NCBI RefSeq assembly: GCF_046105845.1
Contig: NZ_CP151004.1
From: Escherichia coli
Lineage (GTDB): Bacteria > Pseudomonadota > Gammaproteobacteria > Enterobacterales > Enterobacteriaceae
Length of the DNA: 64,000 nt
Direction: 5' to 3' (one strand)
The notes below the pieces were generated by a model. It was given only the letters and a program-made list of their open reading frames with translations. It did no database searches and had not been told where the DNA came from. The position numbers and the translations under genes were made by a program. The number at the start of each line of letters is the position of its first letter. Position 1 is the first letter of the stretch. Of the stretch, positions 12,341-57,743 are shown piece by piece.

Positions 12341-14026
12341 TTGAAGAAGGTTTGGCTTAACCGTTATCCCGCGGACGTTCCGACGGAGATCAACCCTGAC
12401 CGTTATCAATCTCTGGTAGATATGTTTGAGCAGTCGGTCGCGCGCTACGCCGATCAACCCGCGTTTGTGAATATGGGGGAGGTGATGACCTTCCGCAAAC
12501 TGGAAGAACGCAGTCGCGCGTTTGCCGCTTATTTGCAACAAGGGTTGGGGCTGAAGAAAGGCGATCGCGTTGCGTTGATGATGCCTAATTTATTGCAATA
12601 TCCGGTGGCGCTGTTTGGCATTTTGCGTGCCGGGATGATTGTCGTAAACGTTAACCCGTTGTATACCCCGCGTGAACTTGAGCATCAGCTTAACGATAGC
12701 GGCGCATCGGCGATTGTTATCGTGTCTAACTTTGCCCACACTCTGGAAAAAGTGGTTGATAAAACTGCTGTTCAGCACGTTATTTTGACCCGTATGGGCG
12801 ATCAGCTATCTACGGCAAAAGGCACAGTAGTCAACTTCGTTGTTAAATACATCAAGCGTCTGGTGCCGAAATACCATCTGCCAGATGCCATTTCATTTCG
12901 TAGCGCCCTGCACAACGGCTACCGGATGCAGTACGTCAAACCCGAACTGGTGCCGGAAGATTTAGCTTTCCTGCAATACACCGGCGGTACCACTGGTGTG
13001 GCGAAAGGCGCGATGCTGACTCACCGCAATATGCTGGCGAACCTGGAACAGGTTAACGCGACCTATGGTCCGCTGTTGCATCCGGGCAAAGAGCTGGTGG
13101 TGACGGCGCTGCCGCTGTATCACATTTTTGCACTGACCATTAACTGCCTGCTGTTTATCGAACTGGGTGGGCAGAACCTGCTTATCACTAACCCGCGCGA
13201 TATTCCAGGGTTGGTAAAAGAGTTAGCGAAATATCCGTTTACCGCTATCACTGGCGTTAACACTTTGTTCAATGCGTTGCTGAACAATAAAGAGTTCCAG
13301 CAGCTGGATTTCTCCAGTCTGCATCTTTCCGCAGGCGGAGGGATGCCTGTTCAGCAAGTGGTGGCAGAACGTTGGGTGAAACTGACTGGACAGTATCTGC
13401 TGGAAGGTTATGGCCTGACCGAGTGTGCGCCGCTGGTCAGCGTTAACCCGTATGATATTGATTATCATAGCGGTAGCATCGGTTTGCCGGTGCCATCGAC
13501 GGAAGCCAAACTGGTGGATGACGACGACAACGAAGTACCACCGGGTCAACCGGGTGAGCTTTGTGTCAAAGGACCGCAGGTGATGCTGGGTTACTGGCAG
13601 CGTCCGGATGCTACCGATGAAATCATCAAAAATGGCTGGTTACACACCGGCGACATCGCGGTGATGGATGAAGAAGGATTCCTGCGTATTGTCGATCGCA
13701 AAAAAGACATGATTCTGGTTTCCGGTTTTAACGTCTATCCCAACGAGATTGAAGATGTCGTCATGCAGCATCCTGGCGTACAGGAAGTCGCGGCTGTTGG
13801 CGTACCTTCTGGCTCCAGTGGTGAAGCGGTGAAAATCTTCGTAGTGAAAAAAGATCCATCGCTTACCGAAGAGTCACTGGTGACCTTTTGCCGCCGTCAG
13901 CTCACGGGCTACAAAGTACCGAAGCTGGTGGAGTTTCGTGATGAGTTACCGAAATCTAACGTCGGAAAAATTTTGCGACGAGAATTACGTGACGAAGCGC
14001 GCGGCAAAGTGGACAATAAAGCCTGA
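12341..14026 (+). CDS. fadD: Long-chain fatty acid-CoA ligase
   Basis: Track ORF 12275..14026; start set to in-frame TTG ([14 protein letters not shown]) giving the remembered 561-aa FadD; AMP-binding motif [12 protein letters not shown]. Confidence 0.9.
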
Positions 14027-14046
14027 GCGTTAAGTCAGTCGTCAGA

Positions 14047-14071
14047 CGCCGGTTAATCCGGCGTTTTTTTT
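14047..14071 (+). terminator. Rho-independent terminator of fadD
   Basis: Stem CGCCGG/CCGGCG with loop TTAAT followed by a run of 8 T, about 20 nt after the fadD stop. Confidence 0.6.
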
Positions 14072-15229: not shown

Positions 15230-15272
15230 CCGAAGCCGGACTGGGCGCGCTCAGCGCCACATCCGGCTTCGG
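15230..15272. terminator. Large hairpin between convergent rnd and yeaX
   Basis: Perfect 11-bp arms CCGAAGCCGGA/TCCGGCTTCGG around a GC-rich loop; likely bidirectional terminator or REP-like element; coordinates approximate. Confidence 0.4.
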
Positions 15273-54304: not shown

Positions 54305-55348
54305 ATGAGCGAGAACTCGATTCGTTTGACCCAATACAGCCACGGAGCTGGTTGCGGCTGTAAAATTTCCCCAAAAGTGTTGGAAACCATCCTGCACAGT
54401 GAGCAGGCGAAGTTTGTTGATCCGAATTTGCTTGTGGGTAATGAAACCCGCGACGATGCGGCGGTGTACGATCTGGGCAATGGCACCAGCGTTATCAGTA
54501 CCACCGACTTCTTTATGCCGATCGTTGATAATCCTTTCGATTTTGGCCGCATTGCGGCGACTAACGCCATCAGCGATATCTTCGCGATGGGGGGCAAACC
54601 GATTATGGCGATTGCGATCCTCGGCTGGCCTATTAACAAACTTTCCCCTGAAATTGCCCGCGAAGTAACCGAAGGTGGACGCTATGCATGCCGTCAGGCG
54701 GGTATTGCGCTGGCTGGCGGTCACTCCATCGATGCGCCGGAGCCGATTTTTGGTCTGGCGGTAACGGGGATCGTACCGACCGAGCGAGTGAAGAAAAACA
54801 GTACCGCACAAGCCGGATGTAAACTGTTCCTGACGAAACCGCTGGGGATCGGCGTTCTTACCACGGCTGAGAAAAAATCACTGCTGAAACCAGAACATCA
54901 GGGACTGGCGACGGAAGTGATGTGCCGGATGAACATCGCAGGCGCGTCCTTTGCCAACATCGAAGGCGTAAAAGCGATGACCGACGTTACGGGCTTTGGT
55001 CTGCTGGGGCATTTAAGCGAAATGTGTCAGGGGGCTGGTGTGCAGGCGCGCGTCGACTATGAAGCGATCCCGAAACTGCCGGGGGTTGAAGAGTACATTA
55101 AGTTGGGCGCAGTGCCTGGCGGCACCGAACGTAACTTTGCCAGCTACGGTCATCTGATGGGTGAAATGCCGCGTGAAGTGCGCGATCTGCTGTGCGATCC
55201 GCAAACTTCTGGCGGTCTGCTGCTGGCGGTCATGCCGGAAGCAGAAAATGAGGTCAAAGCTACAGCCGCCGAGTTTGGCATTGAACTGACGGCGATTGGC
55301 GAACTGGTGCCAGCGCGCGGCGGTCGTGCCATGGTTGAGATCCGTTAA
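54305..55348 (+). CDS. selD: Selenide, water dikinase (selenophosphate synthetase)
   Basis: Track ORF 54299..55348; start moved to [24 protein letters not shown] giving 347 aa. Confidence 0.9.
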
Positions 55349-55352
55349 TTCA

Positions 55353-57299
55353 ATGCGGTTGTTTATTGCCGAAAAACCGAGTCTGGCGCGCGCCATTGCT
55401 GATGTCCTGCCCAAACCGCACCGGAAAGGCGATGGCTTTATCGAGTGCGGTAATGGTCAGGTGGTGACCTGGTGTATCGGTCACCTGCTTGAGCAGGCGC
55501 AGCCAGACGCCTACGACAGCCGCTATGCGCGCTGGAATCTTGCGGATTTGCCGATTGTCCCGGAAAAGTGGCAATTACAGCCCCGACCCTCCGTGACTAA
55601 ACAACTTAATGTCATCAAACGCTTCCTGCATGAAGCCAGCGAAATCGTTCACGCCGGTGACCCGGATCGCGAAGGGCAATTACTGGTGGATGAAGTGCTG
55701 GACTATCTGCAACTGGCACCGGAAAAGCGCCAGCAGGTACAGCGTTGTTTGATAAACGACATGAACCCGCAGGCGGTTGAGCGGGCGATCGATCGTCTTC
55801 GTTCCAACAGTGAGTTTGTGCCGTTGTGCGTTTCTGCACTGGCGCGGGCCCGAGCCGACTGGCTGTACGGCATCAATATGACCCGCGCTTACACCATTCT
55901 CGGTCGCAATGCGGGTTATCAGGGCGTGCTTTCCGTGGGACGCGTGCAGACGCCCGTACTCGGACTGGTGGTGCGCCGCGACGAAGAGATTGAAAACTTC
56001 GTGGCGAAAGATTTCTTTGAAGTCAAAGCGCATATCGTGACACCTGCCGATGAGCGGTTTACCGCTATCTGGCAACCGAGCGAAGCGTGTGAACCTTATC
56101 AGGATGAAGAAGGACGCTTGTTACATCGTCCGCTGGCGGAGCATGTGGTTAACCGCATCAGCGGTCAACCGGCTATTGTCACCAGCTATAACGATAAACG
56201 GGAATCAGAATCCGCGCCGCTGCCGTTTTCGCTTTCGGCGTTGCAGATTGAAGCGGCTAAACGCTTTGGTCTGAGCGCGCAGAACGTGCTTGATATCTGC
56301 CAGAAGTTGTACGAAACGCACAAGCTAATCACTTATCCGCGTTCCGATTGTCGCTATCTGCCGGAAGAGCATTTTGCCGGACGCCACGCAGTGATGAATG
56401 CCATCAGCGTTCATACACCGGGCTTGTTACCGCAGCCAGTGGTCGATCCAGATATACGCAACCGCTGCTGGGATGACAAAAAGGTCGATGCGCACCACGC
56501 CATCATCCCGACCGCACGGAGTTCTGCGATCAACCTGACGGAGAACGAAGCGAAGGTCTATAACCTGATTGCCCGTCAGTATTTGATGCAATTCTGCCCG
56601 GATGCGGTGTTCCGCAAGTGTGTTATCGAACTGGACATTGCCAAAGGCAAATTTGTCGCTAAAGCCCGTTTTCTTGCTGAAGCAGGCTGGCGCACGCTGT
56701 TAGGCAGCAAAGAGCGCGATGAAGAAAACGACGGCACGCCGCTGCCTGTGGTGGCGAAAGGCGATGAATTGTTGTGCGAAAAAGGTGAAGTGGTAGAGCG
56801 GCAAACCCAGCCGCCGCGCCATTTTACCGATGCAACACTGCTTTCGGCGATGACCGGGATCGCGCGCTTTGTGCAGGACAAAGATCTGAAAAAGATCCTT
56901 CGTGCGACCGATGGTCTGGGGACAGAAGCAACGCGTGCCGGGATTATTGAACTGTTGTTCAAGCGTGGTTTCCTGACCAAAAAAGGGCGCTATATCCACT
57001 CCACCGACGCCGGAAAAGCGTTATTCCATTCGCTGCCAGAAATGGCTACGCGACCGGATATGACCGCGCACTGGGAATCGGTGCTGACGCAAATCAGCGA
57101 AAAGCAGTGTCGCTACCAGGACTTTATGCAGCCGCTGGTGGGGACGCTTTACCAACTGATTGATCAGGCTCGTAGCACTCCGGTCAGACGGTTTAGAGGA
57201 ATTGTGGCACCAGGTGGGGGGGCTGTTAAAAAAGCACCCAATAAGCGAGTAAAAAAAGCGGCAAAGCCCAAAAAAGATAATACGGATTCTGCTAATTAA
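55353..57299 (+). CDS. topB: DNA topoisomerase III
   Basis: Track ORF 55296..57299; start set to [14 protein letters not shown], 4 nt after the selD stop; lysine-rich C-terminus. Confidence 0.9.
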
Positions 57300-57320
57300 T
57301 TCGTTTTCCACTCTAAAACA

Positions 57321-57360
57321 AAGCCAATGGTAGATATTCCGCCATTGGCTTTATTGGTTA
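57321..57360 (+). terminator. Candidate terminator of topB
   Basis: Perfect 10-bp stem AAGCCAATGG/CCATTGGCTT with 11-nt loop followed by TTATTGGTT, about 20 nt after the topB stop. Confidence 0.5.
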
Positions 57361-57743
57361 TACTCGTCATGCTTCAAGTTGCATGTGCTGCGTCTGCGGG
57401 TTATTCGGCCCATCCATGGGCCTCACCCCTTACGGGGCCGCTGAAAGCAGCGTTCAAATCCGCTCCATGCGGATTTGTCGTTCAGCCCAGTCACTTACTT
57501 ATGTAAGCTCCTCGGGATTCACTTACTTGCTGCCTTCCTACAAATCGAATTATTTAGAGTATATGATATAAGTACCCACAGCTAAAATTATAAACGAAAT
57601 ATCTTTATATTCACGTAAGTTATGTTATGGATTGCATCATTATAAATTATTTTTAAACGCAGGGATTGTGAACATTATTCACAAAATGAATATATATAAC
57701 TGCTCTATAAAATGATCAGTTCATTTATTTGAAGAGGATAATT

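Follow-up and report, generated by a model that had tools for sequence, protein, structure and literature searches.

The closest described system to the GC-rich block that lies between topB and an Hsp70-family gene in the Escherichia coli DNA studied here is the ERIC repeat. ERIC, the enterobacterial repetitive intergenic consensus, is also called IRU or RU-1 (Sharples & Lloyd 1990; Hulton et al. 1991; Wilson & Sharp 2006), and insertions of roughly 70-80 bp inside ERIC were reportedly described in 1997 by Sharp and by Cromie et al. The block matches ERIC in its 127-bp core, in its TATAC..GTATA termini with TA, in its intergenic multi-copy distribution and in its presence/absence polymorphism. 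There is no essential difference. The copy here is of the less common long form, at a locus restricted to strains with an Hsp70-J cassette. It resembles the insertions of 1997 in having an extra ~70-80 bp at a fixed internal ERIC site, and the insert found here folds well.

Two other known systems bear on the region. REP/BIME elements are GC-rich palindromic repeats of E. coli intergenic DNA that often follow terminators and are built of ~35-40-bp units. The block differs from them as a single ~127-bp palindrome with an insert and no REP core. A CRP site is a 22-bp symmetric sequence, TGTGA-N6-TCACA. The AT-rich DNA downstream of the block has the two pentamers in perfect inverted orientation, and a 7-nt spacer puts the half-sites out of register.

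The window, by which we mean the whole 64-kb stretch of DNA that was analysed, carries selD-topB on the + strand, followed by the Hsp70-family gene (57744-59444, +), a J-domain protein gene with Sel1/TPR repeats that overlaps it (59441-61375, +), and gdhA on the minus strand (61431-62774). In K-12 the topB-gdhA interval is occupied by ynjI. Homology to K-12 ends at 57214, ~28 codons before the end of topB, and restarts at the gdhA stop codon (61431). The stretch in between (57215-61430) is therefore an alternative cassette that fills a variable slot, with the Hsp70 and J-domain/Sel1 genes (57744-61375) as its cargo. The Hsp70-J operon replaces ynjI in this slot and is strain-specific; the Hsp70 gene is present in approximately 363 of 5426 complete E. 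coli genomes. The topB coding sequence ends at 57299, and its homology to K-12, like that to a three-gene allele of the cassette, stops at 57212-57214. These last ~28 codons (57215-57299, + strand) are variable and are part of the swapped segment, outside the conserved backbone. The 444-bp spacer between topB and the Hsp70 gene (57300-57743) is 100% identical to that of E. coli Ecol_316 (NZ_CP018957), while the surrounding 12.4 kb is only 97.9% identical. Assignment of the cargo to a defence system by PADLOC gave marginal matches only, to PDC-M61B (E 8e-4) and PtuA (1e-6, over 50 residues of repeat), and an NCBIfam search of the cargo returned only generic DnaK/HscA and Sel1-repeat families, below cut-offs. 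The titles and abstracts returned by a literature search on Hsp70/J-domain anti-phage systems do not concern the topB-gdhA locus.

Very probably, the 444-bp spacer consists of three independent pieces: the topB terminator, a long ERIC with a nested module, and the native leader of the Hsp70-J operon. The first piece is a hairpin, AAAGCCAATGG-N11-CCATTGGCTTT, at 57320-57352. It is a probable bidirectional intrinsic terminator of topB, in line with the hairpin that the first-pass annotation had placed after this gene. The evidence is its fold and its conservation. It is stable on both strands (-18.9 kcal/mol with z = -4.2 on the + strand, -20.9 kcal/mol with z = -4.9 on the minus strand) and is kept in 8/8 spacer alleles. 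A consensus terminator scan missed it, since that scan allows loops of up to 8 nt and this one has 11 nt. The U-tract that follows is good on the minus strand (UUUGUUUU) and interrupted on the + strand. With the + strand tract interrupted (UUUAUUGGUU), read-through into the ERIC could be substantial, which counts against taking the ERIC as a mere passenger.

The second piece, the GC-rich block, spans 205 bp on the + strand (57359-57563), slightly wider than the 57383-57540 of the first reading. Its GC content is 50%, rising to 59% in a 78-bp insert, compared with 25% for the leader downstream (57564-57743) and 49% for the window. In a megablast of the spacer, 57359-57563 acts as a separate unit that recurs at unrelated loci. 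Long copies almost identical to it occupy four further intergenic sites (preT-yeiS, yehL-yehK, downstream of gyrA, and yajO-dxs), and aligned copies from other loci share the termini TATACTCGTCAT...TTTAGAGTATA within unrelated flanks. With the 78-bp insert gapped out, the block aligns end-to-end to the E. coli 127-nt ERIC with 112/127 identical positions (88.2%) and to the Salmonella 127-nt ERIC with 114/127 (89.8%); the E. coli consensus and the Salmonella copy are printed in Delihas 2007, Table 1a (PMC2759123). The inverted termini of the block, TATACTC (57359-57365) and GAGTATA (57557-57563), are 7 bp long with TA at both ends. Short terminal inverted repeats with TA ends and a TA target duplication are tabulated for ERIC (PMC2229807). 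Searched with the 127-bp core of a short allele, 5425 of the 5426 complete E. coli genomes gave matches, at 2-15 places in each (median 9, E<=1e-5). Judged by these alignments, the block is an ordinary copy of the long-known ERIC repeat with a small four-hairpin insertion.

Every motif of the first-pass annotation was found where it had been placed. The short palindromes that had drawn attention to the block belong to this repeat or to the module inserted in it. GGCCCAT..ATGGGCC is present at 57407-57422. CTTAC-TTAT-GTAAG (57494-57507) is the central ERIC palindrome, at the tip of the long ERIC hairpin and within the most conserved part of the ERIC core. The direct repeat also stands, with two copies of TCACTTACTT on the + strand at 57491 and 57519 (57491-57528). 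It is an ERIC-intrinsic near-repeat; the ERIC consensus reads TCACTTACTT and TCACTCACTT, and one substitution makes the two identical in the window. The ERIC region folds strongly on either strand, at -70 and -77 kcal/mol (z -4.6 and -5.5). In 100 shuffles, a 35-nt pattern of the ERIC core found 0 matches by chance. Because of this result and the thousands of homologous copies, the palindromes of the block exceed chance, being intrinsic parts of a dispersed repeat. The earlier suggestion of a REP-like sequence holds in one part, since the block is a dispersed intergenic repeat shared with K-12-type genomes, a kind of sharing that the first reading had itself named as a refutation, and fails in the other. 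The REP core GCC(G/T)GATGCG(A/G)CG is absent from 57300-57743 at up to one mismatch, and the sole match in the window lies at 15254. A 62-aa open reading frame (57383-57571) traverses the ERIC, in frame across the 78-bp insert. It was rejected as coding: elsewhere the insert measures 73-76 nt, so that no coding constraint applies.

We compared four empty and four filled alleles of the spacer with matching flanks, which represent two lineages ~8% apart. Among strains with the matching cassette and leader the spacer has three states. It is empty, at 241 bp, in CFSAN051542, RM9513, C11 and the IS1-disrupted PSS-12; it is 241 bp plus a 127-bp ERIC in Rb-3, Z1323HEC0475 and an ST1193 strain; and it is 241 bp plus the 205-bp ERIC in the window. 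Because alleles with the same flanks exist without ERIC or with the 127-bp form, the block is an inserted repeat with filled and empty sites between strains. Taking out the ERIC together with one TA gives back the empty-site length, and the comparison excludes that the empty alleles are deletions with ragged ends. Two bases beside the left junction differ, TTGGT in filled alleles and TTTAT in empty ones, so that a TA target duplication is consistent with the lengths but not proven. The four filled alleles share linked substitutions relative to the four empty ones, which fits a single insertion, or a single loss. By approximate counts, the leader (57564-57743) is found with or without ERIC in 265 of the 5426 genomes, of which 153 have ERIC in the spacer and 112 do not; the long form at this locus occurs in 21 of the 5426 at >=99% identity. 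A third arrangement accounts for ~96 further genomes. In this three-gene allele a different segment, which encodes a 266-aa signal-peptide protein, takes the place of the leader, and similarity with the window begins exactly at the Hsp70 ATG.

The 78-bp insertion lies in the left arm of the ERIC (57399-57476, + strand). It is missing from the 127-bp ERIC of Rb-3, Z1323HEC0475 and the ST1193 strain. The ERICs of the window and Rb-3 are orthologous, since their arms carry the same lineage-specific substitutions. The insert forms four hairpins in series (GGCCCA/TGGGCC, CCCC/GGGG, CGCTG/CAGCG and CAAATCCGC/GCGGATTTG) and folds at -38.4 kcal/mol (z = -5.1). A T-loop-like GTTCAAATCC is present in this module, and a tRNA/tmRNA scan of 57200-57800 found nothing. 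The insert is present in 648/5426 genomes, with 1-3 copies in each, and a second insertion type (insert-2), which came to light in the metagenome scan described below, sits in the other arm of some ERICs in 616/5426. A plasmid search placed the module at the corresponding site of the ERIC between ybtA and ybtP, in the yersiniabactin high-pathogenicity island (Salmonella plasmids); this copy is ~84% identical and shows compensatory stem changes. That ERIC is like the present one in its long form, in its four-hairpin module at the corresponding site and in lying in intergenic DNA that contains a promoter and belongs to an accessory cluster, and it differs in locus and host. Metagenome contigs were scanned by exact match to the 26-nt fourth hairpin of the insert. 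The matches were some E. coli ERIC loci and eight contigs from a different organism, in which a ~75-nt homologue sits within an unrelated intergenic repeat. The first three stems of this homologue differ in sequence with pairing kept.

A covariance model built from six ERIC insert-1 copies only recovers the metagenome copies over their full length (50-60 bits) and also picks up the second insertion type (42 bits, E about 4e-8). In the 64-kb window it finds no further copy of the module. In the module alignment, which was fitted to the model's structure, 94.3% of cells pair, compared with 25-46% when the partners are slid, and changes on both sides occur in 17/24 pairs. For four of five measures on this model-fitted alignment, 0/500 shuffles reached the observed value. 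The model searches thus indicate that the insert belongs to a structurally conserved module family. It was found at two distinct internal ERIC sites in E. coli, which hold the two homologous insertion types, in the yersiniabactin-island ERIC and in the unrelated metagenome intergenic repeat.

The Rfam family AaHKsRNA22 (RF02902) matches the minus strand of the module at 57400-57488. Both have four serial hairpins, the linkers GAACG, CG and GAG are identical in the cmscan alignment, and the whole model is covered. The module scores 25.3 bits in the window and its copy in the yersiniabactin island 29.7 bits; both values are under the gathering score of 39.8 and make this a lead, not membership. 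The metagenome and insert-2 variants of the module had no RF02902 match. The module possibly corresponds to Aggregatibacter 'sRNA 22'. On a broader reading, the 78-bp insert would come from a family of its own, whose four-hairpin modules (~75-82 nt) enter the arms of larger palindromic repeats in a single orientation and do so in different Gammaproteobacteria. We put this reading forward tentatively, at somewhat less than an even chance. If it is true, the compensatory substitutions in the stems would point to selection on a folded single strand (RNA, or an ssDNA intermediate of hairpin-guided transposition), and the short and long ERIC alleles at the topB-Hsp70 site, which are otherwise orthologous, would be a snapshot of the module's recent gain or of its precise loss. 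We count the long ERIC as already known, and take the broader distribution of the module as a modest lead, perhaps a new one.

The third piece is the leader of the Hsp70-J operon (57564-57743, + strand), its presumed promoter region. The very AT-rich DNA first noticed upstream of the Hsp70 ATG corresponds to these 180 bp, at 25% GC, within the strain-variable cassette. A perfect inverted repeat, TTGTGAA-N5-TTCACAA (57666-57684), contains the TGTGA-N7-TCACA reported earlier, at 57667-57683. The repeat is unique in the 64-kb window. It is invariant in the eight alleles, including one cut by IS1 just downstream, and the 100 bp before the Hsp70 ATG are invariant or nearly so. As these alleles amount to two lineages ~8% apart, zero changes in 19 bp are not significant. 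The invariance of the repeat and of the last 100 bp is compatible with function, though only two lineages were sampled. In 2000 dinucleotide-preserving shuffles of the leader, 33% hold a perfect inverted repeat (arms >=7 bp, spacer <=10 nt). A CRP-type site finds no support here, with a spacer of N7 in place of N6 and a repeat no better than chance would give; TGTGA-N6-TCACA occurs nowhere in the 64-kb window. A protein scan of the genome collection places the closest non-E. coli Hsp70 ortholog in Klebsiella spallanzanii (77% amino-acid identity), and its leader, read by eye, has no copy of the inverted repeat. All other ortholog matches are <=55% identical (Pseudomonas and others). With one close ortholog only, no phylogenetic footprint is possible outside E. 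coli. The TTGTGAA-N5-TTCACAA repeat is probably fortuitous.

The TATAAAAT element pointed out before the start codon occupies 57706-57713, 31 nt ahead of the Hsp70 ATG (57744). In the four ERIC-free alleles it reads TATAAAAG. A sigma-70 consensus scan (>=9/12 positions, 16-18-nt spacer) of the + strand of 57200-57800 found no site, and a consensus promoter scan of the minus strand of 57300-57743 found none. The best usable candidate in a position-weight scan is a weak sigma-70 promoter that overlaps TATAAAAT, ATGAAT-16-TAAAAT (57686-57713, + strand, score 7.4). The critical last T of TAAAAT is G in all ERIC-free alleles, and the weight-matrix candidates are weak and composition-driven. A good Shine-Dalgarno sequence, AAGAGGA (57732-57738, + strand), ends 5 nt before the Hsp70 ATG, and the RefSeq annotation of an identical spacer gives the same start, 57744. 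The Rfam scan proposed in the first-pass annotation used permissive thresholds for the region and gathering thresholds for the whole window. No family reaches its gathering score in 57300-57743, and sroD, elsewhere in the window, is the only one that does.

These pieces suggest how the spacer may be organized. The ERIC, a non-autonomous, MITE-like imperfect palindrome, inserted at a TA 7 bp downstream of the terminator hairpin, and the long form is a standard 127-bp ERIC with its left arm interrupted by the 78-bp module. Because it lies between the terminator and the operon promoter, read-through from topB would be its only transcription, and a long hairpin RNA would result. Physically, it would mainly set the topB terminator apart from the AT-rich promoter region by 205 bp of DNA that is richer in GC and prone to structure. 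The operon promoter may be weak or non-consensus, within the last ~100 bp. Since the ERIC is optional among strains and follows a terminator, we infer that this copy is most likely a neutral passenger. Reviews describe ERIC as co-transcribed with its neighbours, with RNase E-dependent effects on mRNA stability in Yersinia (PMC2229807 among them).

The ERIC, with its module or without it, could instead be a working cis-regulatory RNA, reached by topB read-through, that forms a long hairpin and strengthens termination or insulation between topB and the Hsp70 operon, or that sets the stability of the selD-topB mRNA via RNase E/RNase III. The imperfect + strand U-tract of the topB terminator and the strong fold of the ERIC speak for this, and reviews report that ERICs in the 3' regions of Yersinia genes alter transcript levels through an RNase E site. 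However, those effects are orientation-dependent and were shown in Yersinia at other loci. In addition, the ERIC here sits after a good hairpin terminator and is missing from 112/265 genomes with the leader, and we consider a cis-acting role unlikely. Transcription could also run the other way, as a minus-strand small RNA through the ERIC and module that ends at the hairpin 57352-57320 with the tail UUUGUUUU. The terminator U-tract is better on this strand. Two promoter-like sites are found on it, GTGAAT-16-TATAAT in the leader (-10 at 57592-57587) and TTTAGC-17-TATACT (-10 at the ERIC terminus, 57563-57558), and these hexamer pairs outscore every + strand candidate. Beside the AaHKsRNA22 match, the ERIC arms give sub-threshold matches to isrH, Ysr49 and STnc540, which suggests that ERIC-derived transcripts have been catalogued as small RNAs elsewhere. 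Yet every Rfam match is below its gathering score, the consensus scan has no minus-strand promoter in the spacer, and -10-like hexamers are expected by chance at 25% GC, where a background of leader composition lowers the scores to 5.9-6.7. A minus-strand small RNA is therefore highly improbable in our estimate.

Two further readings of the region take up ideas of the first-pass annotation. One takes the leader as an H-NS-silenced xenogeneic promoter and the TTGTGAA-N5-TTCACAA repeat as the operator of a dimeric factor, CRP-like or other. It draws on the GC content of the leader (25% against 49% for the window), on the accessory nature of the cassette (363/5426 genomes) and on the repeat itself, whose 7+7 bp are perfect, unique in 64 kb and invariant in eight alleles, with its centre ~45 bp upstream of where the TAAAAT candidate would begin transcription. 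An AT-rich accessory leader of this composition could plausibly be an H-NS target. Against the combined reading, the spacing is N7 and only one half-site is left at N6, a repeat of equal quality arises in 33% of shuffled leaders, the invariance spans two lineages ~8% apart, the Klebsiella spallanzanii leader (by eye) is without the repeat, and no regulator gene is linked to the Hsp70-J operon. A silenced promoter with such an operator seems to us distinctly unlikely. The other reading has the GC-rich block as a leftover of the replaced ynjI locus. Only its position at the edge of the swapped segment favours this. Interval 57215-61430 has no similarity to the K-12 topB-gdhA interval with its ynjI region, the block has the two termini of a complete ERIC, and it is missing from otherwise identical cassettes. 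These results refute a ynjI leftover, whose probability is vanishingly small.

With the block read as an inserted ERIC, a false lead is removed from the region: there is no CRP operator, no ynjI relic and no new RNA family, and ERIC repeat is the fitting annotation for it. The block itself is already known; some potential for novelty lies only in the four-hairpin module, taken as a nested element in its own right. The empty, 127-bp and 205-bp states before one operon form a natural allelic series for the effects of ERIC on neighbour expression in E. coli; good evidence for such effects comes from Yersinia only. The locus could also serve the study of how the four-hairpin module moves. In ERIC-PCR typing, the topB-Hsp70 site would show a strain-specific band difference.

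The topB-gdhA slot (window 57215-61430; compared at loci L003, L009, L010 and L011) is multi-allelic in E. coli. K-12 carries ynjI at this position. Other strains carry a two-gene allele, Hsp70 plus its J-domain partner, or a three-gene allele in which a 266-aa signal-peptide protein accompanies this pair. An IS1-truncated form is the remaining allele. The left swap point of the slot is inside topB itself, and topoisomerase III consequently varies between haplotypes in its final ~28 codons. In strain PSS-12 (L011 4124-4180), the leader carries IS1 directly downstream of the TTGTGAA-N5-TTCACAA repeat; this strain has lost the Hsp70 gene together with the 5' part of the J-protein gene.

The Hsp70 of the window, encoded with its partner at 57744-61375, is 44% identical to HscC of K-12. 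Its partner protein has a DjlC-like J domain at the N terminus and Sel1 repeats after it. In K-12, the surroundings of hscC (the ybeQ-hscC cluster, L053) contain the same families, namely Sel1, DUF1266, J and Hsp70, and ynjI is itself a DUF1266 protein. From this overlap in families, the alternative cassettes of the slot seem to share one functional gene set as their source. For the Hsp70-J cassette, PADLOC returned no more than marginal matches.

The topB-Hsp70 spacer (57300-57743) is 100% identical to that of strain Ecol_316, while the 12.4 kb around it is only 97.9% identical, with 250 mismatches (window 55000-63734 against L001). Against strains with a short ERIC, the Hsp70 5' region is ~91.5% identical and the spacer 96-97%. 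These values indicate a recombination mosaic around the topB-Hsp70 locus. On the metagenome contig OGTB01001918.1 (L035), topB and its terminator precede an ERIC whose left half is that of the window's element and whose right half belongs to another ERIC, with rpiA after it. Either the assembly is chimeric through the repeat, or the junction reflects an ERIC-mediated rearrangement.

The 78-bp four-hairpin module in the left arm of the window's ERIC (57399-57476) has relatives elsewhere. A second four-hairpin insertion sits within the right arm of certain ERICs, such as the ones downstream of gyrA and upstream of rpiA (comparison loci L006 2666-2741, L035 3335-3410 and L041 458-533). It is homologous to the window's insert, scoring 42 bits with a model built from copies of that first insert type only, and has the same orientation. 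This second type occurs in 616 of 5426 E. coli genomes, O157:H7 included. The same module is also found in metagenome contigs of a non-E. coli organism (L034, L037, L038, L040, L042, L043, L045 and L050), nested within an intergenic repeat other than ERIC. In these copies the 26 nt of the last hairpin are identical, and the remaining stems show compensatory changes. In the yersiniabactin island of 165 Salmonella plasmids, the ybtA-ybtP spacer, a divergent promoter region, contains a long ERIC that bears the module at the same position within the element (L051 1460-1665).

A 62-codon ORF (57383-57571, plus strand) crosses the ERIC and stays open through the insert, which is 26 codons long. This openness is probably fortuitous, because the length of the insert is not divisible by three in its other copies.

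The sole gathering-level Rfam match in the whole window is the sroD sRNA (RF00370, 115 bits; 13985-14070, plus strand). The ERIC arms match the curated enterobacterial 'sRNA' families isrH, STnc540, Ysr49 and CssrA below threshold (57314-57423 and 57365-57408, minus strand; L051 1467-1664), which suggests that these families contain ERIC-derived sequence. On the minus strand, the topB terminator hairpin has the better of its two U-tracts (UUUGUUUU; 57296-57360). A perfect TATAAT lies on the minus strand of the leader (57587-57592), and the TATACT at the ERIC terminus (57558-57563) is a -10-like hexamer pointing into the element.
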